Assembly (NCBI GenBank): GCA_051294905.1
Contig: CM119372.1
Span: 37,264,001 to 37,328,000, forward strand
Source: Botryllus schlosseri
Lineage: Eukaryota
Direction: 5' to 3'
DNA: 64,000 bases
The notes beneath the pieces were generated by a model. That model saw nothing but the letters and a program-made list of their open reading frames with translations. It was not told the DNA's origin and ran no database searches. Shown here piece after piece: positions 19,383 through 59,344 of this stretch. The position numbers were made by a program, and so were the translations under genes. Every line of letters starts with the position of its first letter. Position 1 is the stretch's first letter.

Positions 19383-20357
19383 TTATGCCGGTGGTGGTGG
19401 AGCGACATCAACGTGTGACTTGAAACTCTTTCTGGTGTCCTGACGTTGCCAATGGACAATTCCGCATGTACTGTGTACGGCCTTTCTCATTTCCTTTGAA
19501 CCAAAGTAGTACACGAACGGATTCATGCATTCCGTGATTCGGAGAACGCCATGAGCGATCAACAACAACAGCACCGAAGTACGATACGGCAGATCATCAC
19601 GCATGACGCCGATGTATATTTTAGTAACGGTCTCCCATGTATATCCAACGAGACAGCTGGTGGCTATAGACAGCAGCTGTTTAACGGCTTTTTTGTCCTT
19701 TGACTTCGTAACTGCGTTCGACGAACTTGCTGGTAACTTGCGTTGCTTCAAGAACACACAAATGCCGAAGCATAATCCAGTTACCAGTAGCATCGGGATA
19801 AAAACCCCGATGAGCACCGTAAGATAGAACATGAGCCGCACAGTTTGATTCGCGCGTTCGCCCAAGCCGCACCTGAATCCAACATCTGCTTTTGTAACAT
19901 CAAATAGTAAAAACAAGGGTGATGATAACAGAATGGCATAGCACCAGCAGAAACAAACCAAGCGAATGTATTTCCGTATATCTAGCACGTTCCTATTGGA
20001 GAGGGCATAGACGATTCCACGCAATCTAACGACGCTCAGCAACAAAACATGATGGACGGTTGCAATCGAAGTGACCATGTCCAGGGGCGTTGCAATAATG
20101 CAGAAAAATCTGCGAAGCGTGAAGTTTCGTGATGTAAGCACAACGAGTACGTGTGCTGGACTGTTGCAAGCTGAAATCATGTCGGAGATGCAGAGTCCAA
20201 TGATGATGACGTTGAAAACAGTCCGTTTCGTCCGAAGCAGAGCTGTGGTCATAACAGCGTTCGTCACGAAGCATATCGCGGATAAAATTGAAAAAGTAAA
20301 CATCGCAAAGGTATACAACGCACCGGTTGGTGCGTAGAGTTGTGTATCATTCGAAAT
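19383..20357 (-). CDS. Intronless rhodopsin-class (class A-like) orphan GPCR, subtype A; start codon uncertain
   Basis: Seven hydrophobic segments, LCISD (TM2), C3.25 plus ECL2 Cys, SVVRLR in place of DRY, FIPML (TM5), NPFVYY (TM7). The position homologous to the paralog's ATG is ATT (20355-20357); first in-frame ATG is at 20303. AATAAA at 19221-19226 (-). Confidence 0.85.
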   Translation of the reverse strand: MSNDTQLYAPTGALYTFAMFTFSILSAICFVTNAVMTTALLRTKRTVFNVIIIGLCISDMISACNSPAHVLVVLTSRNFTLRRFFCIIATPLDMVTSIATVHHVLLLSVVRLRGIVYALSNRNVLDIRKYIRLVCFCWCYAILLSSPLFLLFDVTKADVGFRCGLGERANQTVRLMFYLTVLIGVFIPMLLVTGLCFGICVFLKQRKLPASSSNAVTKSKDKKAVKQLLSIATSCLVGYTWETVTKIYIGVMRDDLPYRTSVLLLLIAHGVLRITECMNPFVYYFGSKEMRKAVHSTCGIVHWQRQDTRKSFKSHVDVAPPPPA

Positions 20358-20561
20358 TGATAATTTTTATTTACAGTCGAACACAAAAGCTGCTTTCCAA
20401 AATATAAAGAAATAATCTCGATAGATTCACGTACAGCATGTAATAATAAAGGTATGGGTTTTCAAATTCCTGACTGCAAAATTCATTCGGAAATCTCACA
20501 ACCAAACATTCAGCACGAAGAAAACGAAGTAGCTGTTATTTTATAGGCCAATGTTCTATAG

Positions 20562-21754
20562 CAGTGTTTCTCAACCGGGGGTCCCCGAAGCCTCAAAATG
20601 TAGTAGATAACTAATTAGTATTTTTTTTAATTCGAAAAATCACGAGGCAGTTTCTCTTCATTACTAGTAGAACTCCAGAGCTCGGATTAACAGAATGGCC
20701 GTCTGAGATGAAATATCTTACTCTGCAGACTCATTTTACCTGCTAAATTGCCAATAGCCTACTGATACAAACATTTTGCTGTTTAGAGATGTTTTGATGA
20801 GGATTGTGGGAAAAAGTTGGATCAGTAAGGTCAATCACGGTGACTTCGAAATGTTTACAAAATCCATTGTCTCCTCTGATGTACGCAATCATTATTACCA
20901 TAATAACCTCAAGATAAGCTGCTCGATAGAAATGACCAGTTTTGACGTTCAATCAATCAATCGACTGATTATATTTTAATCTGCTCAAGACATAATGTAC
21001 AATGTATAATGCGATGTAGTGAACAGATAGGGGGATGCCGAACGACCGACCCAGTTGGGGTCTCTTGAACTGGCATCCACCTCGATCTATAGTGCCCGAT
21101 GTCACAGTCTCCTTCGATGTTATTTTTTCTTCGCCGTACCTTTTTAGAAGCTGTTGCCTGCTCTTTTTTTTTCTTTATCGGGACTTTTTCTGGGATTTCT
21201 TTGTCACCGTAAGCACTACGGCACGGAAGACAAGGAGCCCAGAATAACCTGGAACTTGAGCCGCCTGCTTGGATGGTGTCGACGCTCACCACTACGCTAT
21301 CTCCCCCGAATGGTATATGTTCATTAAAAAATTGTTGGTCAATTTTTGTGCCCTATTTGTTGCGATCATACCCAAATGTGTCGTTGGAAGCGTTACGCGT
21401 TAATATTACATTCGCCACCACCTATGTTTGAAGAAATGGATTTTCGGCACTCGTTCATATCAAATCGAAGGCGCAGATTTTCAAGACACGACCACGTATT
21501 TCAAGAAATGCAATTGCAGAATTCGCTTTGAAATAATAGAAGTCAACTTCATTTCTACACGAATTGTATATTCTTATTTTCAAGAAAGAGCGTTTTGTTG
21601 CTGTTCATCACTGAGCCTACAGTTATCATTTGCACAAGATAGACGACGACTGCACGATAATTGAGCTAGAGTTCAACTAAAACTTCGTGGGGTCCGCGGA
21701 AGTCCGTTACGGGCTGAGAGGGGCCCACGGAGACAAAAAGGTTGAGAACCACTG
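20562..21754. mobile_element. Buster-type hAT MITE about 200 bp upstream of the GPCR
   Basis: TIRs CAGTGTTTCTCAACC / GGTTGAGAACCACTG; perfect TSD TTCTATAG. Confidence 0.9.
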
Positions 21755-21976
21755 TTCTATAGGGTTACCATACGTCCTGCATTAGAGGGATTTGTCCTCG
21801 TTTTCAAAAAATCGACAATGTCCTCCGAGGACGCTGAAATGTCCTACTATTTGGCAATTCGTCCTCGTTTATAGCTTTGAGAGCCAAGCGGTAATAATAG
21901 GGACTGGGGTTGCATTCAAAACAAACGGTGTTTTAAAACAGTTTGTTTAAATCACGTTTTAAACAATGTTCTAAAC

Positions 21977-22366
21977 CAGCGGATCCCAACGTGGGCGATA
22001 TTGCCCCCCAGGGGGCGATTTCTCGGTCTAGGGGGACGAAAATGACGAAGGGGGCGATAGGGGGGCGAAAATGGACAAATGGGGAGACAGGGGGCGAAAA
22101 TAGCGAAGGGGGCGATGACGCGTTAAAACGGCTATATTGGAGTCAATTCGGAGAAATGACCTCTTTTTTTTTAGTCAACCAACGAAAAACTGGTTGCAAA
22201 AGTGTAAAATTCGACATCGAGCCGAAAAGTTGGCCTTTTTTTTTAGTCAACCCGCCGGTGATTACAGTTTGTATGCCCATTTTTCGGTTCACAAAATTTT
22301 AGGGGGCCATGATCGGTGTTGAACTTGAAAAGGGGGCGATGGGTCGAAAAAGGTTGGGAACCACTG
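21977..22366. mobile_element. Buster-type hAT MITE (GGGGCGA motifs)
   Basis: TIRs CAGCGGATCCCAAC / GTTGGGAACCACTG; perfect TSD TTCTAAAC; inverted relative at about 42772-43206. Confidence 0.88.
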
Positions 22367-22498
22367 TTCTAAACAAATCCCTTAAAAACACATATTTGTT
22401 TTTTAAACGTGTAATTATAGCATAATTGTGTAATTACATTCGAAAAACATGTAGGTAGTATGAGCCTACATGGACGACTTGCACTCAATAATCTAGTC

Positions 22499-24435
22499 CA
22501 GTGCTTTTCAACCTGTGTGACGGTTCGCACTTGTGCGAATGAAAAAAAAATTCAGTGCGAATGACCAGCGTGGTGCGAATGGGGCGAATGAAAAACCCGG
22601 ATGAGTGCGAATGAAAATTGTCCATGCTTCTCAATTTTTTGACGTGGAATAATTCAAATAAACTTAATACGATACTATAAAGCACAGTGAGACCCTAAAT
22701 TTTGCCGTTTGGAAGCAATTTTAAAAACTTGTAAATAGCGGGGCTTTTCTAGTTCACAAGTGAGGAACGCTCCCGATGCGTGTACTGTATAATTGTATAT
22801 TGCGAAGTTTGAGAGAATATTTCCGCGCGAGAGGGTTACGTCACTGCCTGGAAAAAGATTTACTGGAATCAGTATCAGTTGCTCGGACTCGGAAACATCG
22901 TCCGTGTACGGACCTTGTAGGAATGTTAGTAATAGTAGCCGATGCCAGTGTCGACATTTGGCATATTTGAATGCAAAATATTGTAATTTCGGCACATATT
23001 CCTGTTTTTAAACAGAAGAATTTTGCGTTTCTTCAACTATAACAACTAACGCATTAGATCTGTAACAAGTGTTGTTTACTCGTGTACCTAACCAAGTATT
23101 AGAGCAGAGGTCTCAAACACGCGACCCGCCAGAGCATTTTGTGCGGCCCATAAGTGTCTTTATATTGCATTGCATCGAACTATATCAAGTCACTGGTCAG
23201 TGGACAGTTTATCTACTGACCATTGCAATGCCTGTGTGGAATTTTAACTACACCATTTAGGCTTTGACAAGCTTTCCTGTTCTTGGACTGATAATCTCAG
23301 GTCGAGTCTAGATCATTAAGTAAGGCATAGGCCTATTACATATAATTAATTGGTGATATCGCTAAGTTTGCTGATCCATAGGAAAAGTTTGCCTAGTGTG
23401 TATTCGTACCATCTTTGTACTACAAACTTTGTTATATTCCGAATTCAACCGATTTAGCTCGAGCGGGAGCACCCTCTGCAGCGCAAAATCAAATCCACCA
23501 AGACGTATGTCTTACGATATTCCTTCTGCAGCCTAATTGAAGCTTAATTAGACTGTTGAAACTTATTACTCTTTATGTATAAGGATATTTGGGATAGTAA
23601 AGATAATTTGGCATTACTTCAGTCAGTTTGCCATTGTTGAACGCTTGCCCTAATAAGAGCTTACCGCAGTTGGCAACCCTGGCCGATATAACTGTGCGTT
23701 AATCATCAATCTTATGTGACTTATAATTATTCAAGAAGTGTCGGCTTTGACAACACAAGGATACCGCAAGTTATTCTTGAAATATATGTTGATCTGTGTA
23801 CTCCATAGATAAGAAGGGAATGAAGTCTAAGGCTATCCATAAATAACTGTCATCAATCACTCAGATTGTGGGGGTTTGTATAGCAATGCTTTCCTGATTT
23901 TAACGCCCACCGTACCCTCCAATCGGCTAACATACATTAGTACGGTGAAGCATATTTTCGAATGTTGTCAGAAAATGAACGAAAGGTGCTACTCGCAACA
24001 TTGGTGCTACGATTCAATTGCAGTTTCACTATTTTGTGCGTTTTAAATGCGAACACATTCACATCGCGATGACGTAACATGTCGACTTAGTGGAAAAGTG
24101 ATATTGTTGCGAGTGCATGTTGTTCTTGGGTTAGCCTTCCAAGCTCCGAAGGAAATCATTGCACGATGCACCCGGAAACAACGAACACCTTGAGAACAGC
24201 GGGAGTGCTATATCTGTGATTTTTCGACAGCCATGATTTTAGTACTTGATTAATCAATAATACGATACGCTGAATGGAAAATATTGAAGCTCTGTACCTC
24301 CAAGAAGCTCTTCCAATACAAAAGTGACAAGTTTCTTCATTTCATTTTGTGTAATGAATTCCGATTGGCTGGTGCGAATGAAATTTTGTTTGAAAAAAAA
24401 GTGCGAACGGAGCTCAAAAAGGTTGAAAAGCACTG
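22499..24435. mobile_element. Buster-type hAT non-autonomous element with internal Penelope-like relic
   Basis: Perfect 16-bp TIR CAGTGCTTTTCAACCT; perfect TSD ATCTAGTC; TGCGAA motifs; 24281-24310 matches the Penelope pLTR tail. Confidence 0.9.
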
Positions 24436-28456: not shown

Positions 28457-28647
28457 CAATGTTCCGTCTAAGCTGCGCACGTGCCAAACGCGCAGTGCTG
28501 ACACGGTCTCTGCGCATAGAAAATCTAAGTTGCGCACAAAAATCCGAAGTGATGACCTTTTTTTAGTCGTTACGTGCTATTGTCCAAGCGTCTGCGCAGT
28601 GAGTTGGTGAGTGTGCGCAGACTCGTCATAACTTAGAGGGAACATTG
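28457..28647. mobile_element. Small MITE inserted in the right TIR of E
   Basis: TIRs CAATGTTCCGTCTAAG / CTTAGAGGGAACATTG; TSD GCTGAGAA/GTTGAGAG; TGCGCA motifs. Confidence 0.8.
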
Positions 28648-30609: not shown

Positions 30610-31944
30610 CAGTGGTTCCTAAACTTTTTATAGAGCTTCTTGGAGGTACAGAACTTCAATACACAATTGAATAGTACATTCCTATTGAAATAAACCCGAG
30701 TATTTTCGTTCGCGCCGTTGGGAGGGGCCGTTCACACTTACATTTGTGTGCCTTGGAGTCGAATTTTATCAAAATACACCAACCCAAACTCTGTCAACAA
30801 AAGAAGTTCGTGTACCACCTGAAAATAGTACATTGAACGCTCTCTCGTTCGAAATTTCATGCTGGTGACGTCATATTTTGTGATACGATTGTTGATATAC
30901 CATGTTATTTCCAATTCTCTACTAGTTGCTGACGATTGCCCTGACGAGTGTCAGCCGAAAATATTCGAGTTTATTTCAATGTGAATATACTTCAATTGTA
31001 TATTGAAACTGTTTATACCGTGACGAAAATCTGAGTTTTGTCCATCTCGCGACCCAAGCCTCATCCATCGATATGGATGCATTTCGAATATCAGTATGCT
31101 ACGTCTTGACGGGCATGTATGAAATAGCGAAGGCGTAGACATCCAATTGTTCACAATGTAGTTCTATGAAACAGTTGTGACGCACGCGATTTCAAATCGG
31201 GGTGCAATATTTTCCTCCACGGGCCACATTTGTAATGCGGGGCTCAGATTGCAAGGACGAGACTATATTCGGTGCCGACCATTTCAAAGACAGGACATAT
31301 CTGTATTGGAGGTTTTGGCCAACTAGCAACGGTCATTTTGGGCCAAGGTTTTATCGCACTCATCCTGCATTTCTAGCACCGCATTTTAGCCGCAAACGCT
31401 TGTAGGACCAAACCTTGTTTCATGTGCGGTGCGGCCCAGGCGGATAGTGTGGCCTCGAAATACATTTACACACCCTTAGAGTAAAGCATCCCAACGGGCT
31501 CCGGCGGCGTTAAGCGATTGTAGGAATATTCAGCTTTTCACAATCGCGAATAGATCCGATTCATTTCTGTAAATTATTCGGAGAAAAAACTTTTTTTCCA
31601 CCACCCTGCCCAAGTGTTACCCGCGTTAAGTTAGACCTTCCAGAGAAACCGATGTCAGACAATTCTTATCATGACAGCAAACTAATTTGTGTAATACAAA
31701 GATCGGCACATGTTAATGATTAAGGCATCGTATAGTAACCACTCTTCTGCGTGTCTCGCTTATTGGCTATAGTACACAACACAGTGACCTTCTATAGATA
31801 CAAACGAAGCACAGGATATCGCGGGAAACGCGAATAAATTTTGCTGTTGCAAGAAATTCAGCAATCGCTTCTGGCGCTCGCAACCCAAATTCATACGCTT
31901 CGCGACCCATGTTCGGGTCGCGACCTAAACTTTGAGAAACCCTG
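30610..31944. mobile_element. Buster-type hAT MITE hosting a Penelope insertion
   Basis: CAGTGGTTCCTAAAC / TTTGAGAAACCCTG termini; TSD CTTTATTG/CTTTAGTG. Confidence 0.75.
30633..31005 (+). mobile_element. Penelope-like element 3' fragment with short inverted pLTR
   Basis: Encodes GRGRSHLHLCALESNFIKIHQPKLCQQKKFVYHLKIVH* (GIY-YIG end); TSD AAACTTTTTATA/AAACTGTTTATA; hammerhead core at 30941-30966. Confidence 0.88.
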
Positions 31945-33636: not shown

Positions 33637-34595
33637 CAGTGTTGGGATCAAGTCACTACCTTCGAGTCACGAGTCATTTCGAGTCATTGCAGATTTTGAC
33701 TCGAGTCAAGTCAAGTCAATCGATTTTCGAAGGTGACTCGAGTCAAGTCAAGTCACTCGATTTTTGGAGGTGACTCGAGTCAAGTCGAGTCAAGTCAAGT
33801 CAAGTCACGAGTCAAGTCACAATTCAAGTCAAGTTGCCTTTTCAAAGTATGAGGCATGGTTACGTCATTGAATCTTACTAGCTGTATAAAATACAGATTG
33901 AGTGGTCATTGATTTTTAACCGATTAACGAATATACACGCAAAAAAGGCGCTGTATCGCTCACATATACGTAGAACTGCTAACTTCGTAAGTAATTGCAT
34001 AGCCTCAGGTTATAGTTACCAGCCAAAATAGAGAATAGCGAACTGATAAGATGCAATAAATTACGTATTTACAAATTGATATATGATATATTCGAGCCGG
34101 CGGCAATGGGTGAGGACTATATGCAGTATATTCGAATTATATTTCAATAAGACAAGAGGTTTGATTAAGGTAAGAACAGTGAACAGAAATACACATTTTG
34201 CTATTAAATTACTTTACTATACTAGTTTGCGACAACATAAGCTGTAAGCTTCGGTCCTTTCGTTTGCGGTCAATTTATCAGTGAGAGAACAATGGAGGCT
34301 CAGTAAAACGTACGACCAATGAATGATTGGTCGCTCTCACGGGTTACACCAGCGTTTCGCGAGCAATCCGAACATATGCAAGATACAATAACTTTTGTGG
34401 ACACCGATTACTTGATGACTTGAAATTGACTCGTGAAATTTGCTCCGAGTCACGAGTCAATCCTCATTTCTGATACGCCGAGTCAAGTCAAGTCAAGTCA
34501 TTTTAGCAAAGTGACTCGAGTCAAGTCAAGTCATTTGAAAAAGGTGACTCGAGTCAGACTCGAGTCAAGTCATGACTTGAGTCATCCCAACACTG
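33637..34595. mobile_element. hAT MITE family A
   Basis: Perfect 12-bp TIR CAGTGTTGGGAT; perfect TSD ATAAGGAT; dense GACTCGAGTC/AAGTC subterminal arrays. Confidence 0.93.
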
Positions 34596-34603
34596 ATAAG
34601 GAT

Positions 34604-35424
34604 GGGTCTAATCCTAAGAGCAGGGCGTGGATAATATATGGAACAGACATCTTGTCTTTAATATTATCGGCAATATCAGGATCGCTGTGAAGGACGATAC
34701 GTAAACGCGTGATATTGAGATGTTTAACCCATTACTGTTTCGGTTGGACCAGTGAGCTGTGTTGTGAAAGACGATACGCACCCTTGATGCGAAGATCTTT
34801 AAAGCACTACATAAAAATGATCGCCAGTGGAAATCTTGCGATGCGAAGCATCGGTAGGAAGACGCCAAGCGTCATAGACAAGGAGGTTACTGGACAACAA
34901 TATTTCCATCACTTTTACGTCGCTAGTGACAAACGTGCTGGTATCCACGACCTCAAAATAAAATGGAAATATTGCAAACATTGAACCAATCCAAAAACAA
35001 ATAACAAATGCAGGGCATCTTTCAGCAGTCATTTGTCCTCGCGAGCTAACAGGTTTGACTATACTGCGAAACCGGATCACACATAACAGTAGTATGTGAT
35101 AGGGTATTATGGTGGACGTTCCGACGTCAACACTTGCTAACAAATTACAGAAGTTCGGATTTCGGAAATCCTTGAATGTCCTATTCCCGAGAACGTACAG
35201 TGGACTGTTTACAGTTGAAATGACGTGCCACAAGTAAAGTCCCGTTAGGATGATGTGAAATGTGTTGCGTTACATTCGCATCAAGATTGCCACAATCATG
35301 GAGCTTTCCAGGTCCCACACGACGGATTGCACTACGAACGTAGCAACAATCACAGCGAACTCCATGCGATTGAAAGGGAATGGTTCACTGAATGCATCCT
35401 GCGTCTCATTTTAACAAGCAGTAT
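34604..35424 (-). pseudogene. GPCR pseudogene, subtype B (paralog of 46451-47458)
   Basis: FNRMEFAVIVATFVVQSVV..ILMRM*RNTFHIIL..NSPLYV..YHILLLCVIRFRS..FVICFWIGS; start reads ATA, stop at 35270-35272, frameshift before TM5 (GVFLPML in another frame); 3' part degenerate, so the lower boundary is approximate. Confidence 0.92.
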
Positions 35425-35520
35425 CCTTTTCTATTTACCCACGGAGACGGTATTTACGTCCCTTAATGGCGACGCTTCCTATCTCCACGCATTCGAGTCT
35501 ACTCTGAATGGGGCAATATC

Positions 35521-36848
35521 CAGGGTTGCCATTGACATGGACCCAAAAATAAGGACAGTCGAAAAATTAGATTAGCATTAAAAAGTCTTTTTGTCCATAC
35601 TTTGTATTTACACGAGCCGTGGCGTATCACATTCCATACTTTTAGCAAAAACAACCTTCTCCAGCAACTTCTTGTTATTAGAAAGTGCTTCATGGATCTC
35701 ACGACAGCTGAGGTCTTGGTTTACCTTTACTCCCGGCCAAAACAGCACTTTGTCAGCCGCCCCCCTCAAAAGAACGTTGGTCTGGGGCCTCTTATAGGGT
35801 GATAAACCAAACTTTTTCACTTCGTTCTGATTAGACGCGTCAACCAAGATGGTAAAAGGCTGTACACCAAGTTTGGACAAATCAATTTTTGAGCGTATGG
35901 AGCATGAACTCCAGTAACAATGATTGTAGTCTTGGTCCATGTTGGAATCGGGGAATATTCCTTTTGCAATCGTAGTAGAGGAATGATTGCTGGTGTTTGA
36001 CGGTTTGGAATGCCCAGGTACCCTCAGCAGCAGCTGCCACTTGTGGTCTGTGGTCGTTGGTGCTGATCGACTTGTGAGAAAATTGTTCATCGACTGGTTC
36101 GAATCTATCATTATGACATTCTTCTTGTGTTTTGGGGTATCAATGTAGGCTGAAATAGCGGTCTTTCCTATGGCCCCCAGGTTAATATCACAATTGTAAA
36201 TATTGCAATGTGCAAAACACTCGCCCTTTAAGCTTCCTTTGATACCTTTGAATTCTCTCTCATAATCGTCACGAAAAAGTTTTTACGCCTGATCATTTTA
36301 ACTAATCAGATTTATCCTTGTTAGTAGCTAAAACTATATGTGCGATATAAATTTATCAATGATTTATAACTTTACTACTTTTTAACCCAAGTGTCGACTG
36401 CACTGTGCCCTTTTTCAGTACCTATAAATGCTGCCTTCCCCACAGCTTATATCTGCTGTAGGCTAAACAGCAGAAACCTGGTATTGCTGTTTACGGCTAA
36501 AATGACGTCCGCAGCGATAGCTTGGTACAGCCGAAACTTCTATACTACACACTGCCCTAGCTATCTTACCACTATGAAGTCTAATCTAGTGGTGTGTACG
36601 CCACAGTAGTTCCTTTCATTCATGATGTCATAAAAGCTCGACGCGAAGGCATAATTTTAATATATCATGCAACACAGATACCAGAGGAAAACACGATCGA
36701 AGTTCTGTAGTTGTTGAAAATAAGACAAAATAAGGACGCAAGTCGAAAAAAAGTACATTTCTTAGAAATAAGGACATTCGAGTTTTCTAAGACGTGGCCC
36801 TTAAAAATAAGGACAAATCTTAGAAATAAGGACGGTATGGCAACCCTG
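35521..36848 (-). mobile_element. Internally deleted hAT transposon with transposase relics
   Basis: 12-bp TIR CAGGGTTGCCAT; TSD GCAATATC/GCTATATC; AATAAGGAC repeats; relic BED-like finger AHCNIYNCDINLGAIGK..KHKKNV, AAAEGTWA..VKHQQSF, IFPDS, FTILVDASN, C-terminal VKVNQDLSCREI..NKKLLEKV. Confidence 0.88.
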
Positions 36849-37067
36849 GCTATATCTATAGGTTACCGGAGAGTTCACTGCGTAGCATGTTCCTATGCCC
36901 TTGATAGGCGTGGATTTAAATGCGTCGGTCGGTAGATTATTTTGTAATGTCGAGCAAATCAAGTCAGTATAAGATGGATAATGAAGTGGAATAAGCCGCA
37001 TTGACAAAATTCATATTTTCGATCTCTCTGTACATCTCCATACTGAAATTATGTATTCAAAGCATTT

Positions 37068-37633
37068 AATATACAATTAAATTGTATATTCATATTGAAA
37101 TGAACCCGAATATTTTCGGCTGACACTCGTCAGGGGTAATCGTCAGCAACTAGTAGAGAATTGGAAAGAACATTGTATATCAACAATCGTATCACAAAAT
37201 ATGACGTCACCAGCATGAAATTTCGAATGAGAGAGCGTTCAATGTACTATTTTTAGGTGGTACACGAACTCCTTTTGTTGACAGAGTTTTGGTTGGTGTA
37301 TTTTGATAAAAGTTGATTCCAAGGCACACAAATGGAATTGTGAACGGCCTCGCCCTACGATTCGAAATCGGTCGTCTCGATAATTATTCGCACAAATCGG
37401 ATTATCCAACAGATGTTTGCCGATGGCAGAATTAATGGCCTTTGATCGATCAGCATCAATCTTAAGTGGATGAGTTAAGGGTGAGCTTTTCACATCGCGT
37501 GACGCACGTGTTCTGATAAATCTGGGGACATGTTGGTTTATGCGGTCCTGCAGACGTCTTGACCGTTCACAATTCCATTTGTGTGCCTTGGAATCAACTT
37601 TTATCAAAAAAGTTCTGTACCTCCAAGAAGCTC
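37068..37633 (-). mobile_element. Penelope-like element 3' fragment (GIY-YIG endonuclease C-terminal part plus pLTR)
   Basis: RLQDRINQHVP..SAIGKHL..LESTFIKIHQPKLCQQKE; perfect 12-14-bp TSD TTCAAAGCATTTAA (37056-37069/37634-37647). Confidence 0.92.
37104..37137 (-). ncRNA. Minimal type I hammerhead ribozyme (intact core)
   Basis: ACCC-CTGACGA-G-TGTCAGC-C-GAAA-ATAT-TC-GGGT: stem I ACCC/GGGT, CUGANGA and GAAA boxes, 1-bp stem II, palindromic AATATT stem-loop III, UUC cleavage triplet. Confidence 0.8.
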
Positions 37634-38029
37634 TTCAAAGCATTTAAGCATACAGGTGAATCCACTTCATTTGGGCACCGGAAAATCTTTTTATTCGGCC
37701 AACATGCCAGGGAACGAAACAAAAGTAAAAACTGCAATGTGAAAAACTGCGCAATTCGCATATTTGATTATAACTAAAGGGGTTTTCCGACCTAAAAAAC
37801 GGAAGATTTTGACCTGAAAAATCAAAATGTTGACATTTTTTACTTTGAAAAACTTGATTTTGACAAAGTTTGGCCTCATTTATGTAAATTAGGTGTTTTC
37901 GATCATAATGTTAGAAATATAGGCCCTACTACTTATCTTCATTTCTGGTTGAAACTGTCTATCCTTACTAAGTGGTTAGTAGTTACATCATGCACTATAG
38001 TAGAAATAGGTAAAATTTGTTGTAGTAGA

Positions 38030-45216: not shown

Positions 45217-45548
45217 TAGGGCTGGGCACAATGATCCGAGTACTCGAATCTGATTCGAGTATTAATTCTAATGATTCGAGTCGAGTAGTAAAAGACGATT
45301 TTTTCGAGTACTAAAATTACACGCTTCTCGCCACTGAAAGTTAATTTATCAACGAGAATTATAGTTTTGATACAATTTTCCAATGTGGAAGGCTTATAAC
45401 CATGATTGGCCGCATTGAAGCATACGAAACATAGTACAAAGCTACCAACGTTACATGAAATAACACATTTCCGAAGTCATTATCATCCAATTACCTTGTC
45501 AATAAGTGCAGTGATATCGGGTATGGTACTCGATTTTGCCCAGCCCTA
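45217..45548. mobile_element. hAT MITE
   Basis: Perfect TIR TAGGGCTGGGCA; TSD ATCATAAT/ATCATAAC; CGAGTA motifs. Confidence 0.88.
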
Positions 45549-46450
45549 ATCATAACAACCAAATCCGCGCGATTGGGGTCTTGGCTATTGTATAACTTGT
45601 TTATTAGGTGATATCGGTAGCAAGTATAGAAACCCGTTTCACAATAGCAATAGTCAGACGCCACATACATTGTCCGGTCTAGCCTATACCGTTGAGACGT
45701 AAGCTCACATTGCCTTGCAAGTCCTCGTCGAAATTGTTGACAAAGCGACGGAAAATATCGATTTCATGGGATAATTAGATCATTCGATTTTTCCAGCGGA
45801 TGCATTTGGTGATGTTCAAAAAGTCAGCATGCTCTTCCGCATTGTGGCATAATGTGGCCTGAATCTTCGGATATCGTGTACAGTGTACATTGTTGCATTA
45901 CTTAACTGAAATGTAGTGTAGTGTAGGGATATGATTAGTAATATGACGTCACGTGACGTCATAGGCTCACGTTGGCGTTCGCACGGAATATTTCAAAAAG
46001 GTTTGCGTTCACACGAACTAGAAACTTTCAGGGGTTCGCACCATACCTATAAATACATTGTGTGAAAAACAATACGCACGCGTGACGTGGTAAATATTAA
46101 ACGCATGACTACAGTATATATAAACGTCCGATCTCGCTATAAGTATTGGAGGTTTATCTGGACTCGTCATGTTAACCCAATTCGCGCAAGCGTTGTATTA
46201 CAAATAGCCTCGCACGAAAGAGGGCCGTGCTATAGGTCGGGAGGTCGGATATCACAATATCGATTGACGTGAAGTCACCAAATGATAAGGACAGGACCTT
46301 ACTACGAAATTGACGACAACAGCATGATTATAAACACATCAAATCATATCATGAACGTCTATAGGTCGTGGGCGACAAAAATCATAGCGATGACACAACA
46401 GTCCTTATGAAGGTGCCACCAACACCATCACGATTCGGTTGCACGTTTAC

Positions 46451-47458
46451 TCAAGCCGAGACTGTCATTTCTTCGGAGTTCCGTCTGTCTTCATTATTGC
46501 ATGGTATGATGTTGGGAAATTTTTGCTGGTACCATATTTTCGCCGTATCTCTAATTTCATGCGCTCCGAAATAGTAAATGACAGGATTAAGACATTCAGT
46601 GGCGCGAAGTACGCCGTGCGCGATCAGAGATACTGTCGTTACATGCCTATCGGAAATGTGATGTCTTCGTATGATAATGAAAAGCTTTACACTATAATCT
46701 ACCGTGTATCCAACCAGGAAGCTGATCACTACAATCCAGAGCTGGTGTAGGGCCTTCTTTTCCCTCTTCTGCGATGACGAATTGGACGATCTGGTAGCAA
46801 TAGTTGGTCTTCCACGAGTGAGAAACAAGATGATCGCCAGACAAAATCCCGTAATGCATAGCATTGGTAAGAACACACCAACCGTCACAGACAAACCGGT
46901 CAGGTACTGTATAGCACTATTGTCACTTATTATTTCGCAAGTGACAGACGAACCTCTATTCACGACCTCGAAAGCAAAATAAAATGGAACTATCATCAAC
47001 AGCGATCCGATCCAAAAACAAATGACGAACACTGTGCATCTGTCAGCAGTCATTTCTCCTCGCGAGGAGACAGCGTATACTACACTGCGAAACCGGATCA
47101 CGCTTAGCAGTAGTACGTGGTAGACTGTGACGATTGACGTTCCGAATTCGATCATTGGCGTCAAATAACAGAAGAGATTCGGCATTCGATAATCCTTGAA
47201 TGTCGCATTCACGGACACGTAAAGGGGACTGTTCAAAGCTGAAATGAAGTCCGAAAAGCAGAGTCCGATGAGGATGATGTGAAATGTGTTACGTTCCATA
47301 CGCATCAGGATCATCACCATCATGAAACTCCCAATACATCCAACGACTGATTGCACTCCGAATGTAGCAGAAAGTACTGCGGACTCTATGCGATTGAAAG
47401 CGAATTTCTCGCTATCAGACGCGTTCCCTGTTTCATTATAACTGAGCGTAGAATACAT
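46451..47458 (-). CDS. Intronless rhodopsin-class orphan GPCR, subtype B (335 aa)
   Basis: N-terminal sequons NET/NAS, 7 TM segments, LCFSD, C3.25, SVIRFR, W4.50, FLPML, EKKAL, NPVIYY; ATG to TGA intact. Confidence 0.93.
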   Translation of the reverse strand: MYSTLSYNETGNASDSEKFAFNRIESAVLSATFGVQSVVGCIGSFMMVMILMRMERNTFHIILIGLCFSDFISALNSPLYVSVNATFKDYRMPNLFCYLTPMIEFGTSIVTVYHVLLLSVIRFRSVVYAVSSRGEMTADRCTVFVICFWIGSLLMIVPFYFAFEVVNRGSSVTCEIISDNSAIQYLTGLSVTVGVFLPMLCITGFCLAIILFLTRGRPTIATRSSNSSSQKREKKALHQLWIVVISFLVGYTVDYSVKLFIIIRRHHISDRHVTTVSLIAHGVLRATECLNPVIYYFGAHEIRDTAKIWYQQKFPNIIPCNNEDRRNSEEMTVSA

Positions 47459-48373
47459 CCTTTGAAGTTTACTCAGTTTATTGTGCCGCGATAGAGACGA
47501 TGTTGACCTCCCGTTATGATAATGTAGCCTCTCTCAAGGCATTCAATTCTAATGATCGAGATTCTATATCTTCGCGTTACCGGATAATTATCGCTTGAAC
47601 GATCCGTAATAGCGTGCCTACATGTGTGGATATAGCATTAAAATTTCAGTGCGTTGGTCGTTCGATTATTTTGTAATAGGAAACAAATCATGTCATTACG
47701 AGATGAATAATGCAGTGGAATAACCAGCATTGGGTTAATCCATGTTTTCGATCCGACTCCACATCTCCTTACTGTCAAAAGGTAATGCATCATTCAAACG
47801 CTGCCAAGTATTCTCTGGGATCGGGAGACTTAAATACGGACCTATGGGGTTTCAGTCATGGCCAGTGACGTCCATGTGGAAGCCACCGCAGGAAAGTGGC
47901 CAGACCTGAAAACTAGAGGGCATGTAATTTCAAAAGCAGTTTTTTGCTGGGTTGCTTACCTTTGCATTTAATCTTGGGATATTACTAGAGCGAATATTTT
48001 CTGACCTAGAAAACAGAAGATTTTGCAAAAAATGAAAATTCTGACATAAAAAAAATTTAATTCTGACAATATCGTACCCTCAAATAGGTAAATTAGCCAT
48101 TTCCGTACATAATGTCAGAATTATAGTACTTTTCCGCATTTTAGTTGGAACTGTCTGTCATTATATACAAAGTAGCTTGGAAACACGTTTAACAGCAGCA
48201 GTTCTTACCTTTCAGCCTTGAGGTGCATTGGAAACTGCCGGAGTAATAACACCTGTTACTTCATGGTTCATACCGACAAGGTTGTCTACATCCGACTTTT
48301 AAGATCGCGACTTAAAACTGAGTTTTGTTAATATATTGCGATTCACTCGTACGTTTAGAGCCAATGTTGTTAA

Positions 48374-49984
48374 CAGGGCTTTGGAGCCGGAGCCGGAGCC
48401 CCGGAGCCGTGCATTTTTACCGGAGCTGGAGCCGGAGCCGGAGCTCTATATAAAATTCAGCCGGAGCCGGAGCCGGAGCTGGAGCCAGTTATTTGAGGGG
48501 TAGCTCCGGCTCCGACGCATTTCATGAGATGCTATTATATATGCAACAACCATATCTGCTGAGTTCACCGAATTCAACAGCAAACCTTCGCGAAATCTTT
48601 TCCTCTTTGGCGCTAACCATGTTCCTGGGGATTTAATAGTAGAGCAGTCGTACATTCAAAGTTCAATTTTCATACCTGAGTGCCGAACCTCGGTATGCGA
48701 CATATGCCTGTCAATATTGTGGGTATTCGGTATTCCCGCAATTTCATCATCAGCACAACCTTGTTGGCCAATTGTATACAGTTCGAAAATAATGATCACT
48801 ATGTATTACGCGAAATGGGAGAGATGATAAAAACGTGATTTCGTTGCACATGTCGATATGACGAGCACGAGCCGAGAAATTCCATCTCAACGATGCTAGG
48901 AATCGGATAAACAAATACTCGTTTTTTCGTGATAGTTCTTTAGTCGGGCCGCGAAAGTGGACAGTGTTATTGAGTATGCAATTATGCATGCTAATTGCAA
49001 TTCATTACTGCGCATCATTGTCATTCACTCCAGTAAGGATTTTCGAGCTTAAATAGGGAATGACAGAAGAGTAGGCCAAAACCCCATGGTATTCTATGTT
49101 GGAGACAAACTACTGATTTTATATACGCTATTTCCAATTTGTAATCATCTGTTTCGTAAACTTGTAAATGTGCAATGTGCATACTGCATAGTTTAATTCG
49201 TTGTTGACATGGCGCAATGTGCATGACACAGTGTTTATTTCGATTATTCGATTCATTTCAACGGGAAAATATTATTCCGATAAACTTGATCGACCCCGGA
49301 TGGACTAGTAACGAGTGTACCAATATGGAACGTCAAACCATAGGCCATTTGGTACAAATCGAATTTCTATTTATCACGTCGTTATATCCGCGCATTTTCC
49401 CCTTACTACAGTTACAGTGGAATAATAATCGCACATTTGAAGATTGAATTGAGCTGCATGGCCTAGTGGCAATGAGTACAGTGCCAGTGTTAAAACGTCG
49501 CATCAGAATTTTAATGCTGTGGCACGGAGTAAAGTGCTTTTTTAGTTTATTGTAATAGACGACGATTTACTAAAAATGTGACTGGACCCTGGATCTGCCA
49601 GTGCGTCGAAACTGATATTTTAACCAGTCATCAACATCCCAAGTGCCGCGGCCAGACTAATCATATTTTTGGTTGGCCTAGCGAGTTCACAATCTGAGCA
49701 ATTCAATTTCGATAATATAACATAATTTCGATAATATAATGGGAAATTAGCTCGCGGGCTACTCAAAGCCTTCTCGCGGGCCACATATGGCCCACAGGCC
49801 GCGGGTTGCTCCCCCCTGATATAGACAGACACGTTCGATAGTTTTCAGAGCCGGAGCCGGAGCTGGAGCCGGAGCAGTGGTAATAATGCTGCTCCGGAGC
49901 TGGAGCCGGAGCTGATGTATGATAGAAGCAAGCTCCGGAGCCGGAGCTGGAGCAATGCAAATTTATGGCTGCTCCGAAGCCCTG
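48374..49984. mobile_element. hAT non-autonomous element with GGAGCC subterminal arrays
   Basis: TIRs CAGGGCTTTGGAGC / GCTCCGAAGCCCTG; perfect TSD GTTGTTAA. Confidence 0.92.
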
Positions 49985-50704
49985 GTTGTTAAGGTACAGT
50001 TCAGTTTTGAGATATCGGTGTGAATTTGTACAAACTTTGGACCTCTAAAAACTTTGCACGATTTTCGGTGTTTTGATCATCACGCCATGTCAGGTTGTTT
50101 GTGTTATTCGATGGTTTATGATTCACAAAGAGCAGACAATGAATCATCTACAACAGTTGGTCTATAAAGTGTAGGCTAAAAGTTGCAAATTCTCAAATAA
50201 TAAGTAGGCTACACCGAGAGTGCAACCTCTGCAGTACCAAAGAAAAGTAGTTGTATTTGGCCCTTTTCATACCGGATTTTTTAAACTCTTTCGGGAACAT
50301 GTGCCCGAGCGGACAATGCCCACATAGAGCAGAAATTACGGTAACATTTCCAAGAACAGGTCGTGTTCACACCTATTTACAGTTACCACGAACTTTTGTT
50401 CATACAAGTCGCTGGTTCGGTGAGTTCGCGGAAAATTATGGCCGGTATGAACAGGCTTCCCCGTAAATGTTGATTTATGAAACCATGTCAGTGGGGTGTT
50501 CTAGTTGCAATATGATGCGAAATGACGAGGATTTTGGTGTCATGGATATGTGGAAAGTGATGTGGGAGAAGCTTCTTCGTCAGATGCGGAGAAGTTGGCT
50601 CCTCGTTGTCGCAATGGGATGTTCCAGTTTGCCTTCTCAATGTATATGGCGCCCTATACCTGTATCAGAAATAGAGCCCGAACATGTTCCTCATTTGTAT
50701 ATTA

Positions 50705-51505
50705 CAGAGTTGGGATCAAGTACCTGCGAGTAACAAGTCATTTCGATTCATTGCACATTTTGACTCGAGTAGAGTCAAGTCACTCGATTTTTGGAGGGGA
50801 ATCGAGTCAAGTCAAGTCAAGTCACGAGTCAAGTCATAACTCAAGTCAACTTGCCTTTTCGAAGTACGAGGCATGGAGCCGTCTGAAATACTAATCGAGT
50901 GGTCATTGAATCTGAACCGATGAACGAATATAGAGTTTAATATACATGCAAGAAGGCGCTGTATCGCTCACATATACGTAGAACTGGTAAACTACGTAAG
51001 TAATTGCATAGCCTCAGGTAATAGTTAGCAGCCAAAACAGAAAATACAGAATAGAGATACGAATTGATAAGATGCATTACATTACCAATTTACGAATTGA
51101 TATGATGCAATTCGAGCATGCGCCAATGGTTGAGAGGTATATAAACTATATTCGAATTCAATTTCAATAAAACAAGAGGTTTGGTCAAGGTATGAACAGA
51201 GAACAGAAATAGACACTTCGTATTTAAATTTCTTTACTACTAGTCTACGACAACGTAAGCTGTAAGCATCGATCACTTCGTTTGTGGTCAATTTATTTGT
51301 GAGAGAACAATGGAGGCCCAGTAAAACGCAAAATCATTGATTGATTGATTAATTCATTGATAGATTGGTCGCTCTCACGGCTTACAACAGCGTTTCGCGA
51401 ACAATACGAAAATATGCAGAATGCAATGATTTTTATCGGCACCGACTGTACTTCATGACTTGAAATCGACTCGTGAATTTTGCTCTGAGTCACGAATCAA
51501 TTCAC
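50705..51505. mobile_element. Truncated family A MITE
   Basis: Starts CAGAGTTGGGATCAAGT, colinear with 33637-34470; right TIR missing. Confidence 0.85.
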
Positions 51506-54500
51506 ATTATTCGTTGCCAAATGAGCCCTTCGCTATACAGAGGCGACCTCCAATATATGCGATTAATATATTTATTGATCGAATTCATTCATTACCTTGG
51601 AAAATAGCCTATGTAGTGCTTCGCGCGACCAGGGCATGACTGCACACTGAACAGTTGCACACGGAGTTTTCATGACATAATTGATATCAATTTTGAAGCG
51701 TAGCCATATAAGTCTTGTTTTCAATGTTACCTAATTCGGTTCGTTTCTATCGGACGACTAAAAAAAGGTCATCAGTATTCAAGTTGCCCGCTCAATGGTT
51801 CGTAATTTGCATGTGGCCTTTTGGCCGAGAAGGTTGGCCACCCCTGACATAGATAGAATTTGACATTATTTGCTAATTACGATTCAGTCGCGTGGGGGAA
51901 GAAAGCAGCAATATGCATCTTCGCGATGCAGTCACAAACTGATGCAAGTTTTGGAACGCTTCTTCCCACTTGACAAAATTAAAAATATGTGTAGTGTAGC
52001 TTAGCTGCACGAGTCGAACAAATGATTAGGAAATACTTCAAGTCCTCGTCCATGATTACTTGACTAAGTGCATGTAGACTAGACAAATGCTATTTCACTA
52101 CTTCCTGAATTTCTTTTATGACCAATGTCTATTAGTGAGAGTGTGCGCGTTGGTAATCAGTACGGCGTGTAATGAGAAAATTAGTAAGATGCATCTCTGT
52201 AATAGTTGCTGACTCAGACATAAGAACTACACTTCGTTTGTTTTATCTACATTTTAATTATACAGGATGGGATATACGCCGTGTTTGAATGATACATATA
52301 TAATAGGTTATTAGAGAGTCCATGTTATAAAAGCTGATAAAATATGAAAAAGGAAGGACATTTAGAAAGGCAACCTTTCGTGCATAGTGAATAATTCGAG
52401 CTGTGCCACAATGAAACAATTTTGCATGCCATCGGTAATTATATGTTTGCATATGCTTAATGATCATATGATAGTCATTTAACCGTCACTGTGGCATATA
52501 ATTTTCAAAGTAAATTGGTAATATACTGTTGGAGTCGGGGTTTGAGTCGAAGTCAGAGTCGGTACATTTAAAGACTCAGAAGTCGGAGTCGGAGTCGGTC
52601 CATTGAAAATATGTGGAGCCGGAGTCGGAGTTGGAGAGGGTAGTAAAATTTACCGACTCCACAGACCTGGTTCCAACCATCCCATATCGATATAGGTCGG
52701 CTATATCGAGTGGTAATTGTCCGTAGGCTCATGCAACATGTACAAAAGTATTTACACAATTATGGCATAATTTTACAATTAAAAAAAAAAAACAATTTTT
52801 TAAAAGCCTTTGTTTGAAACATTGCGTTTGTTTCCAATGCGACCCTACTGTCAAGTGAGTTCCTCTGAACAAAATATTATTGTAATGAAAGGGAGGATGC
52901 AAATCAATAACAGTGAGCTGAACCAGTTATCAGTCAATCGTCGTTTTTTTTTCTGGTTCGACATATGTCTCTGGGCCGGCATATCACACATAAACGAATT
53001 CATCGTCATTGTGCTGGATACCTTTTATCAGCTCAGAACACCTTCATTATTGACGATTGCGATAACTAAAATTACAGTCGGGATTCTAAACGAATTGTCG
53101 TAGCTTTTCCATCAGAAATATACCTTGGGAAGAGCATTTAAACAAGAGGCGAGCACACCGAATTCGAAGCTACAGTATATAGCATGGAATAGGACAAGCG
53201 ATGAAAATAAAGTGACACTCTGAAGCAGTGGTTCCTAACCTTTTTTTTTACAGCGGTCCCTTTCAAAAATTGCCTGAGTGTGGCGCCCACTATTTTAAGT
53301 AATGTAGTAAAAACAAAGGGTAAGTGGTCGAGGTCCGCTTTCGCGTTGGGACTTCAGACTTCACTATAAGACCACTCGACTACTTAACGGTATAGTTGTA
53401 TGTGCTACTCTCGGGATCAAATCCAGGTTGCTATACCAACCATCGAGTAAGGCCTATACGGGCTCATGGCATTTGGTTCGAGATCGATATACACATCCCA
53501 AATTCTCCTCTGCGATTGCCAATACGGCGGCGTTAACTGTATTCAGTTTTGTTTTATTGTTTTATGTAACTACTAAATCAACTGAAAATGCGCTGAAGCT
53601 TTGCTCACGAAAATTTATTCCTGCACCAAGCTCTTAACTTTAACGTTAATGCAGGTAACAACACTAAGGAGTATCATCCTTTATGATACGATGAAGAGAT
53701 ATTCTGACAATTTAATTTTGTAGCTTTCAAATGCAAGTATATTTTGTTAATGATTTTGGATAAAAAGCTTCAAAACATCTTTAATGTATAAAGGGCATCA
53801 CTCTCAAAAGTTTTACAGTAGCCTACAGTGGCGTTTCTATTTCAGCACGCAGTGAGCTGCAAGATAAAATACCTGGTTGAAAACATTTTGTGGAAAATAA
53901 TCCAAGCTCTCAGTATAAGCATCAGTTTATTAATACTTTCATCATTTCAAAACACCACAAAACTGAATTAAACACGAATTAAAATAAACTACTGCTTTCA
54001 TGGAAACATGGTCGTTGGATATTTCGCGATGAGCTGAACGAAAAATGTCGTGATTCGACAGATTTTGTCAAATGTTAGTTTGCAATGAGAACTCGGGGAT
54101 ATATAGAACCATTGTTCTGCTATATAATCCTATGTTTTCAGTACACCATCTACTTCGAGGCCATTTTTCTTCAGCGCCCCCATACCGCCATCCTGAGCCC
54201 AGCACTCCCCATTCTGCCTCTGAGCGTCTCCGCCCCCTTCAAAATCCGAATCACGTCCAGTGACCGTGACAGCACTGCGCATTCGCGCACGAGCACAGCT
54301 TAGAGGGAACATGCTTTTGACTCAGAGGCTTGTTACTTGGTTACAACTCTGCTTAAAATTCATCTATAACACTGGTCCGCACAATTTTTGTTGACTTTGA
54401 TCAGACAATTGATTTTGTTCAAGTTTTTGGCGCTGAATTAAAAAATGACTTCCGTTTTTCTTCATCACGTCATGTTTTGGGTTAGGCGCCCACCACATTG

Positions 54501-54819
54501 TTTCATAACCCACATAACTGCACTACTTTTAATATTTTGTGTTTATTGTGTAAAACGTTTCAAAAACCACCAGCAGTCGAAAGTAAATCAATAGATGTCA
54601 ATTAAACATTTGCACTGCTTTACTTGGTCGATTTAAACTAATATTGCTTCTACAGGACTAATAAAGTGCAAGTTTCAGAGTCCAAATTTACGCTAAATCA
54701 TGTGCAAAATCAAAATCAACATTTTTTTCGTTCAAAATTGTTGCCCCGTGTAATAGGGTCCCTGTTCAATAGATGATTTATTACTCCATGAGATTTCATT
54801 CAATTCGACATGTAGTAAT

Positions 54820-55400
54820 TCAATTCGCATTGACTGGCACTTCAACGTCAGCAACACGAATCCAAAATAGATTCCTGAAATCGCCTCACAGCCGATGCAC
54901 ATCCTTCATAATGTCGTGGGGGCCGAAGTAGTAGAGAAACGGATTCAATATATTTGTAGAACGAAGCGAGCCATGTGCACGGATCAACATTACCATTGAT
55001 GTACGCTACGGCAGATTATCACGCTTGAAGCCGATGTAAGTCATTGTAGCGGACCCCGCCGCGTAACCAGTACGCCAGCTACTGGCTATCGTGGCCAGCT
55101 GTATCACAGCTCTCCCATCCTTCTTTTTTGAAGTAGCACTCGTCGAGGTCGTAGGTACTTTGCGTCGCTCCGGGAATATACAGATGAAGATATATAATCC
55201 AGTCACTACGAGCATGGGGATCAAAATGCCGACGGTGATTGAGAAATAGAATATCAATCTGAATATCGCATGGTTGCCTTTAGTCAGGACGCTCCTGAAT
55301 CCAAATTCTATCACTCTCGCATCAAATAGGAATACCAAGGGGAAGGATAGAATCGCGGCGTAACACCAGCAAAGCGAAATCTACCGAACACATTATCACT
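54820..55400 (-). pseudogene. 5'-truncated GPCR pseudogene (TM4 to C-terminus), subtype A
   Basis: CVR*ISLCWCYAAILSFPL..ITVGILIPML..RDNLP*RTSMVMLIRAHGSLRSTNILNPFLYYFG..VADVEVPVNAN*; at least three in-frame stops; starts about 35 bp after the stop of 55435-56397. Confidence 0.93.
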
Positions 55401-55434
55401 TCGTAATACGCCATCCATCTGGGTATGTCGAAAT

Positions 55435-56397
55435 TCAATTCCCATTGACTGGTACTTCAGCGTCGGCCACACGAGCCCGAAATGTCTTTCGAAAATCTTT
55501 CCACAGCCGATGTACATCATTTCTTATTTCGTGCGATCCGAAATAGTAGAGAAACGGATTCAGTAATTCTGTAGAGCGAAGCACGCCGTGAGCAATGAGA
55601 AGCATTGCCATTGACGTCGTGTAGGGAAGTGAATCACGCATAAGGCCGATGTAAATCTTTGTAGCGGACTCAACAGTATATCCAGTAAGGCAGCTAGCGG
55701 CTATCATGGCCAGCTGTCTGACAGCCCTCCCGTCGTTCTTTTTCGAAGTACCACTAGTCGAAGTCGTCGGTACCTTGCGTCGCTTCAGGAATATACAAAC
55801 GGCGATGCATAATCCTGCTACTACGAGCATGGGGAAGAAGATACCGACCGTGATTGAGATATAGAATATTAATCTCACCAGCGAGTGGGTCCCTTCGCTC
55901 AGGCCGCACCGGACTCCAGATTCAGTCTCTCTCGCGTCCATTAGGAATAACAGCGGAAAGGACAGAAGTGTTGCGTAGCACCAGCAAAGCCAAACCCACC
56001 GGACACATTCTTGCGCTGTCGTTTCGTTTCTAGACGATAGTGCGTGGATGATTCTGCGCATCCTGAGTACACTGAGAAGCAGAACGTGGTGGAGAGTCGC
56101 AATTGAAGTGAGTACGTCGATAGGCTGAGCAAGAATGCATATGAATCGATGGTTCCTGAAATAGCGTGACGTTAGTACCACAACCACGTGCATGGGGCTG
56201 TTGCAAGCTGAAATCGCATCGGAGAAGCAGAGTCCTATGATGATGACGTTAAAAACGGTTCGTTTGGCTCGGAGCAGTGACGCGATCATGACGGTGTTCG
56301 CCAGAAAGCCAATCACAGCGAAACCAGAAAACAGCACGGTTGTACCAGTGTATAACGCATCACTGGCACCGTACGGTCGGTGTGTGACATTAGACAT
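55435..56397 (-). CDS. Intronless rhodopsin-class orphan GPCR, subtype A (320 aa)
   Basis: N-terminal sequon NVT, N1.50, LCFSD, C3.25, SVLRMR, FFPML, NPFLYY; 62/84 identical to the 19383 gene over ICL1-ICL2 by manual count. Confidence 0.93.
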   Translation of the reverse strand: MSNVTHRPYGASDALYTGTTVLFSGFAVIGFLANTVMIASLLRAKRTVFNVIIIGLCFSDAISACNSPMHVVVVLTSRYFRNHRFICILAQPIDVLTSIATLHHVLLLSVLRMRRIIHALSSRNETTAQECVRWVWLCWCYATLLSFPLLFLMDARETESGVRCGLSEGTHSLVRLIFYISITVGIFFPMLVVAGLCIAVCIFLKRRKVPTTSTSGTSKKNDGRAVRQLAMIAASCLTGYTVESATKIYIGLMRDSLPYTTSMAMLLIAHGVLRSTELLNPFLYYFGSHEIRNDVHRLWKDFRKTFRARVADAEVPVNGN

Positions 56398-59326: not shown

Positions 59327-59344
59327 AACAGGTTACAATAAGCA

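Follow-up and report, generated by a model that had tools for sequence, protein, structure and literature searches.

Intron-free class A receptor genes in Botryllus schlosseri, part of a divergent ascidian family with a possible chemosensory role

A five-copy receptor array in a repeat-rich stretch

A stretch of 64,000 nucleotides of the ascidian Botryllus schlosseri (assembly GCA_051294905.1, contig CM119372.1, positions 37,264,001 to 37,328,000; hereafter the window) was searched for G-protein-coupled receptor (GPCR) genes by tblastn and by profiles in six frames with stops masked. Exactly five class A copies and no sixth were found, all on the minus strand, an arrangement expected by chance in 1 of 16 cases (Table 1). 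All five matched Pfam 7tm_1: the long frames gave E-values of 6e-21, 4e-23 and 5e-19 (69–83 bits, against a curated cut-off of 30.5), the fragments E-values of 6e-6 and 3e-5. The long copies, A1, B2 and A3, each consist of one open frame that spans transmembrane helices TM1 to TM7 and therefore have no coding intron; only about 12–25 residues precede TM1. Protein identity is 55% between A copies and 38–40% between A and B, defining two subtypes, and the fragments A3p and Bp are 67% and 60% identical to A3 and B2, respectively. An initial annotation, made from the sequence alone, had described five related seven-helix sequences on the minus strand, with intron-free coding regions, very short N-termini and two subtypes, and the searches agree with it on each of these points. 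It had also called the array tandem, which fits A3 and A3p, separated by 41 nt, but not the other neighbours, which are separated by 14, 11 and 7 kb of repeat-bearing DNA. The homology of the B copy that it listed from 34604 stops near 34790–34815 instead.

Table 1. Receptor copies and associated features of the window
Feature	Coordinates	Strand	Description
A1, subtype A	19383..20357	-	open seven-helix frame without internal lesion; ATT at start position; status uncertain
Bp, subtype B pseudogene	34790..35410	-	TM1 to mid-TM5; stop, frameshift, 3′ half gone
DNA transposon, 5′ flank of Bp	35521..36848	.	11-bp terminal inverted repeats, 8-bp flanking duplication
Displaced 5′ flank of Bp	36914..37045	-	resembles flank upstream of B2
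B2, subtype B gene, intact	46451..47458	-	ATG to stop, 335 aa
A3p, subtype A pseudogene	54820..55394	-	TM4-to-stop half of A3 copy; three in-frame stops
A3, subtype A gene, intact	55435..56397	-	ATG to stop, one frame, 320 aa

Two copies are clearly broken. Bp carries an in-frame stop at 35270–35272 and a frameshift near 34900, has lost D2.50 (residues are numbered here from motif anchors and the customary convention) and ends in TM5. A 132-bp stretch located 185–316 nt upstream of B2, a gene with two N-terminal N-glycosylation sequons, is 77% identical to positions 36914–37045 upstream of Bp; B2 and Bp therefore arose by a duplication at the DNA level that included the 5′ flank. That flank is now separated from Bp by a 1.3-kb element bordered by an 8-bp duplication (7 of 8 positions alike), which suggests a hAT-like transposon; the 224-codon frame of the element has no Pfam match.

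A3p is 77% identical to A3 over 585 nt with no indels, a 23% divergence that rules out an assembly duplicate, and has lost the cysteine of extracellular loop 2 (ECL2), E6.51, K6.55 and E7.46. The ratio of nonsynonymous to synonymous substitution rates (dN/dS) was 0.16 between A1 and A3, at a dS of about 2 that is near saturation, and 0.32 between A3 and A3p (dS 0.62). With A1 as the reference for polarity, A3p had accumulated 27 amino-acid changes and A3 had accumulated 10. By our own arithmetic a copy dead from birth should yield a dN/dS of about 0.55–0.6; A3p therefore probably worked for a time before dying. Its 5′ half appears to have been lost through a deletion that took intergenic DNA too. 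The first AATAAA downstream of A3 is 653 nt away, past A3p, so that the dead copy probably now forms 3′ untranslated region of A3. On the other side of A3, a pyrimidine-rich acceptor-like site lies at 56433, 35 nt upstream of the ATG (56397–56433, minus strand), and may mark an intron of the 5′ untranslated region or a trans-splice site; past it, the frame of an out-of-frame upstream ATG overlaps the A3 start.

The state of A1 is less clear. Where A3 carries its ATG, A1 has ATT at 20357; its first in-frame methionine falls within TM1, at 20303, and the interval from the upstream in-frame stop to TM1 contains no AG acceptor. A1 may for these reasons be a third pseudogene of very recent origin, a gene with a non-AUG start, or the product of an assembly error. 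Two pseudogenes among the five, as initially annotated, is thus secure for Bp and A3p and perhaps one too few, with 2 to 3 of the 5 copies dead. The duplicated 5′ flank of the B pair, the transposon insertion, the dN/dS values and the relaxed selection on the dead copy support the birth-and-death turnover that had been proposed for the cluster.

Repeats are abundant in the remainder of the window (31% self-matching), with remnants of long interspersed nuclear elements (LINEs) and DNA transposons. No other host gene emerged: Pfam had no match for a further 116 frames, made up of 92 from the 177 with 66–99 codons and 24 longer ones, most repeat-covered frames being left out. A broken reverse transcriptase of LINE type, spread over two frames, occupies 369–1269 (minus strand; Pfam RVT_1), and open frames at 17276–17928 and 37239–37634, with no Pfam match, resemble by eye C-terminal remnants of elements without long terminal repeats or of Penelope type. 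A repeat of 800–900 bp with arrays of AGTCA units at its ends is present in three copies (15672–16496, 33637–34591 and 50705–51508; 76–78% alike), one of which sits just past the truncated end of Bp. A palindromic family resembling miniature inverted-repeat transposable elements (MITEs) occurs at 8966–9392, 30716–31008, 37065–37359 and 59058–59328.

An ascidian family and its probable ancestry

Searched with a profile built from A1, B2 and A3, the library yielded 1730 proteins at E ≤ 0.001. The best 150 were inspected, and 76 of them, each representing its own cluster at 50% identity, share a signature with the window proteins. Counts over these 76 and the three window proteins, in which row numbers vary with residue coverage, describe the family and are not a test of it, since the signature motifs also defined the set: S2.53 (66/68), an acid at 3.32 (49/65), T3.39 (67/69), H3.42 (54/70), G6.47 (74/76), Y6.48 (75/75), R7.43 (66/76) and E7.46 (73/76), with D or E at 3.49 in 0 of 70 rows and Tyr at 5.58 in 0 of 75. 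Family rows also conserve R3.50 (68/70), D2.50 (65/67) and Y7.53 (73/76). Trees serve as the test: in FastTree (137 rows) the family forms one side of a long branch with support 1.0. In IQ-TREE, 54 family rows, fragments and some members being left out, split from 7 outgroup rows at 100/100; the root given by the outgroup lies between long branches, as the program warned, the warning concerning one outgroup row that looks neuromedin-U-like. Pfam 7tm_1 was matched by 50 of 51 members at E ≤ 0.001. With 76 signature clusters, and a clade at 100/100 for the rows in the tree, the uncharacterised, expanded class A family postulated initially is supported.

Thirty of the 76 clusters were looked up: nine are from Styela clava, one from Ciona intestinalis and one from Clavelina lepadiformis, and 19 carry no species name. 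Two additional Styela proteins came from a word-index search with family alignments, and all named members looked up are ascidian. Predicted proteins of these three species (XP_039265942.1, XP_039270232.1, XP_004226264.1 and XP_076822023.1) share the signature and the clade; the names given to them automatically include 'GHSR type 1-like' and 'neurotensin receptor type 1-like'. Where compared, the named members are about 23–30% identical to the window proteins; most keep P6.50 and some have coding splice isoforms. One cluster includes three RefSeq Styela models that share about 98% of their sequence and come from two contigs. In one tandem arrangement, gene models.19 and.21 of a Styela scaffold are both members and flank a further GPCR,.20; some Styela members are listed among 152 class A receptors, without discussion in the accessible parts of that study (PMC9138782).

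The window proteins belong to a subclade of 15 rows (100/100 in IQ-TREE; pairwise identity 26–55% in a 16-row alignment) that contains none of the named ascidian members. Its 11 looked-up members, all Logan proteins without species name, share no more than 45% identity with the window proteins. Within it, subtype A is supported at 100/100 and B2 groups weakly with P0001 (96/64). Rooting on the Ciona and Clavelina side would place the subclade within Styela lineages. The initial description as lineage-specific therefore suits the intron-free subclade, which looks restricted, but not the family, which is present in Ciona, Clavelina and Styela. Of four Styela isoform pairs compared, two differ internally, by 1 or 4 residues, after TM7 and in TM6. 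Relatives therefore have coding introns, and the intron-free state of the window genes is probably derived.

The word-index protein search returned no family member among 3309 candidates with A3 alone and 3 and 5 proteins with family alignments, which reflects limited sensitivity rather than absence; two pattern scans of metagenome contigs gave 423 and 595 matches, none of them confirmed as a relative's locus; and ESM Atlas neighbours were generic class A. No published description of the window family was found in a search that left most subscription papers outside. In Ciona, 23 unassigned 'Other Rhodopsins' have been reported in a main text that, where seen, is silent on ghrelin, motilin and neurotensin; the family motif was not found in the supplements of that 2008 survey as far as they were seen, although Ciona has a member, and a motif split across lines of the PDF may have escaped the search (PMC2396169). 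Term searches of the available parts of PMC5818035, PMC13746493 and PMC12448946 did not find the family either. As for its Ciona member, Mirabeau and Joly are said to have possibly placed it in 2013.

Regarding ancestry, the whole-family profile ranked solved structures in the order GHSR (144 bits), motilin receptor (127) and SSTR2 (123), followed by NTSR1. A profile of 22 GHSR-like members gave 152 bits for GHSR, 137 each for NTSR1 and the motilin receptor and 107 for NMUR1, aminergic receptors scoring about 45 bits below GHSR. The Ciona member reached 75–96 bits with GHSR, motilin and neurotensin receptors and at most 59 with anything else; Styela P0015, near the window subclade, ranks GHSR first; and hhalign joined the window subclade to the GHSR-like member group with probability 100. 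Descent from the GHSR/MLNR/NTSR/GPR39 group is thus probable on profile rankings. A point against it is that single window proteins match SSTR1 and opioid receptors first, so that for them the GHSR ancestry rests on a chain through other members. Orthology to SSTR or opioid receptors was nevertheless rejected: D3.32 is common to both sides, yet the ranking reverses with broader profiles, and on our reading drift and the common D3.32 would account for the resemblance. The initial annotation recognised no named peptide or amine receptor in these proteins. There is indeed no one-to-one orthologue of a deorphanised receptor, but the origin is traceable, GHSR, motilin and neurotensin receptors having ranked first.

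GHSR, MLNR and NTSR1, the closest solved relatives, have in common with the window family the class A fold, the TM3–ECL2 cysteines and NPxxY. By contrast, the family carries hydrophobic-R-x in place of ERY, GYxx in place of CWxP, Arg for Y7.43 and Glu for A7.46, lacks Y5.58, and comprises many paralogues with pseudogenes among them. The ligand pocket of GHSR features the pair E3.33–R6.55. It is missing in the window subclade, where 3.33 is not acidic, the acid stands one position earlier, at 3.32, and K occupies 6.55.

Other kinships were examined and discarded. Olfactory receptors (ORs) are marked by the motifs MAYDRYVAIC, KAFSTC and PMYFFL; none of these occurs in the three window proteins and no 7tm_4 match was found among 51 family members, in keeping with the initial statement that these are not ORs. 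Trace amine-associated receptors (TAARs) and other aminergic receptors were dismissed despite the presence of D/E3.32, since DRY and CWxP are missing and aminergic receptors rank low. Kinship with opsins through a basic residue at 7.43 fails because it is Arg, not Lys, and no opsin was among the best 60 PDB matches.

Predicted pocket and signalling residues

An AlphaFold2 model of A3 built with 51 sequences (pLDDT 92, superseding an earlier 3-sequence model of pLDDT 61) shows seven helices, an ECL2 beta-hairpin and helix 8. Its fold matches are peptide and chemoattractant receptors, with TM-scores of 0.70–0.81 at 15–21% identity. The hallmarks D2.50, the cysteines C3.25 and of ECL2, R3.50, P5.50 and NPxxY are present, and retention of R3.50, D2.50 and NPxxY argues for signalling. 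P6.50 is missing in 23 of 23 rows of the window subclade.

The inner pocket of this subclade is nearly fixed: position 3.32 is acidic in 16 of 18 rows and 6.51 in 21 of 23, and K6.55 (19/23), H7.39 (21/22), R7.43 (22/22) and Y6.48 complete the core, outer positions being variable. Mean entropy was 0.66 bits for deep and 2.55 bits for rim positions, against 1.70 bits over the transmembrane helices, with position sets chosen post hoc and an invalid shuffle figure; the mean over all 25 pocket positions is about 1.5 bits by our own sum. Positions 3.32 and 7.43 are adjacent in class A receptors, which makes a D3.32–R7.43 salt bridge likely, with E7.46 placed beside D2.50 in the ion pocket. Co-variation of the two positions (44 acid/R, 8 other/R, 8 other/N, 2 acid/other) was discounted as evidence because it stems from a single clade. 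A second, sister subclade of 8 rows (P0019, P0020, P0021, P0023, P0025, P0030, P0033 and P0061), has W3.49, K or R at 6.51, N7.43 and no acid at 3.32. This suggests a pocket of reversed charge and a different class of ligand.

Possible functions of the family

We tentatively favour, as the best single account, that these are ascidian receptors descended from the GHSR group and acting as low-expressed chemoreceptors for external charged ligands. One branch of the family would have lost its coding introns, by retroposition or intron loss, and multiplied via local DNA duplication, the duplication and decay being visible within the window; copies would die through stop codons, deletion and transposon insertion. 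Survivors might be expressed at low level on sensory or epithelial cells and detect outside molecules of a charged, water-soluble class, e.g. peptides or amino-acid-like compounds. The fixed polar core (D/E3.32, D/E6.51, K6.55, H7.39, R7.43, Y6.48) could hold a charged group common to them, and the variable rim could tune each copy. Signalling, putatively through G proteins, would rely on the kept R3.50, NPxxY motif and helix 8; the switch, which lacks D3.49, Y5.58, W6.48 and P6.50, would be a rewired one. Ligands on record for the parent group, in the portions of the sources available, include bile acids for GPR39 and GHSR and erythromycin for the motilin receptor.

The genomic setting recalls the clustered, lineage-specific, pseudogene-rich class A arrays of vertebrate ORs and TAARs. 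Those receptors likewise have intronless coding regions and short N-termini, and TAARs carry D3.32. The window family differs from them in ancestry, and its deep pocket is charged and conserved while that of ORs is hypervariable. Lineage-specific expansions of class A receptors have a precedent in Lophotrochozoa, to judge from the parts consulted of PMC11886862. Arrays of this kind are thus already known, and a chemosensory role is a reasonable bet, albeit unproven.

Several observations weigh against such a role. Four RNA runs under the same species label were mapped to 45501–60500, a stretch that leaves A1 outside; one gave no mapped reads and the other three contributed 22.2, 12.9 and 10.0 million records, 3–13% of each run. 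Depth was zero over 55001–56500 (A3) and 46501–47000 in all three, and 0.04 over 47001–47500 in one, so that B2 had practically no coverage. A run search listed no RNA run containing these sequences, which speaks neither for nor against expression. The runs carry no tissue labels, one is single-cell, and the stretch holds no positive-control gene. Given this weak sampling, zero depth rules out only abundant expression in those samples, and it fits expression in rare cells and silence alike. Nearly all mapped reads were partial matches to repeats; the 59001–59500 bin, with its MITE-like copy, collected many partial reads from other genome sites. Further points on the same side are that the relatives in the window subclade may stem from several species, that a conserved deep pocket is what paralogous peptide receptors are expected to have, and that tunicate-specific neuropeptide receptors multiply as paralogues too, according to the parts seen of PMC6475428.

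The last two points lead to an unlikely but serious rival, namely that these are paralogous receptors for endogenous ascidian-specific neuropeptides or gut peptides with a common charged terminus, as in the LF-peptide receptors of Ciona. The profile rankings place the ancestry in a peptide-receptor group, the A3 model has an ECL2 beta-hairpin and peptide-receptor fold matches, and the charged core conserved in the window subclade would suit peptide ligands equally well. There is also precedent: Ci-LF-R, Ci-YFV-R and Ci-NTLP-2-R form Ciona-specific, tunicate-restricted clades of paralogous peptide receptors, a likeness to the window family, in the parts of PMC6475428 that were available. However, the family's TM7 motif had 0 matches in three supplement files of that paper containing the deorphanised Ciona LF, YFV, NTLP-2 and GALP receptors, whose sequences were displayed in part; membership of the LF, YFV or NTLP-2 clades was rejected on this negative search and the dissimilarity by eye of the displayed sequences, the LF receptors having, unlike the window genes, long cysteine-rich N-termini (PMC6475428). 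Against a set of endogenous peptide receptors also stand the 2–3 dead copies of 5 and at least 12 further lineages below 50% identity. Frequent gene death and many divergent lineages are unusual for hormone receptors.

Quite improbable in our view, although its genomic anatomy matches, is that the genes encode receptors of blood cells that respond to cues from microbes or conspecifics, in chemotaxis or allorecognition. The organisation would be that of the FPR, chemokine or MRGPR clusters of vertebrates, likewise intronless and rapidly turned over. The fold matches of the A3 model include C3aR, C5aR1, CMKLR1 and FPR1, which score no better than other peptide receptors; the sequence ancestry lies outside the chemoattractant group, and the three RNA runs, single-cell one included and all without tissue labels, gave no reads for these genes. 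Non-signalling scavengers, or a decaying and largely silent array, would agree with the loss of D3.49 (70/70) and Y5.58 (75/75) in the family and of P6.50 (23/23) in the window subclade, with A1 lacking its ATG and with the missing RNA reads, but are very hard to reconcile with R3.50, D2.50 and Y7.53 kept in 68/70, 65/67 and 73/76 rows, helix 8 in the A3 model and purifying selection (dN/dS 0.16).

If the chemoreceptor reading is correct, it may be taken one step further, which we consider possible though somewhat doubtful: after the loss of vertebrate-type ORs, ascidians would have recruited a ghrelin/motilin/neurotensin-type peptide receptor as a chemoreceptor repertoire with a rewired switch (R7.43/E7.46, no D3.49 or Y5.58), the intron-free subclade being its fast-turnover branch, sensing cues of settlement, food or neighbours. 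Tunicates, the sister group of vertebrates, have no OR, V1R, V2R or clear TAAR orthologues, and their chemosensory receptors are an unsolved question as presented in the consulted parts of PMC7776563. The family described here supplies a list of candidate chemoreceptors with a diagnostic motif, intact genes and a member in Ciona. Reporters and knock-outs are routine in that animal. The family is in any case a natural class A variant without D3.49, Y5.58 and W6.48 and with a fixed Arg–Glu pair in TM7, and should its ligands turn out to be endogenous peptides, it would still show the fate of the ghrelin/motilin/neurotensin receptor line in ascidians.

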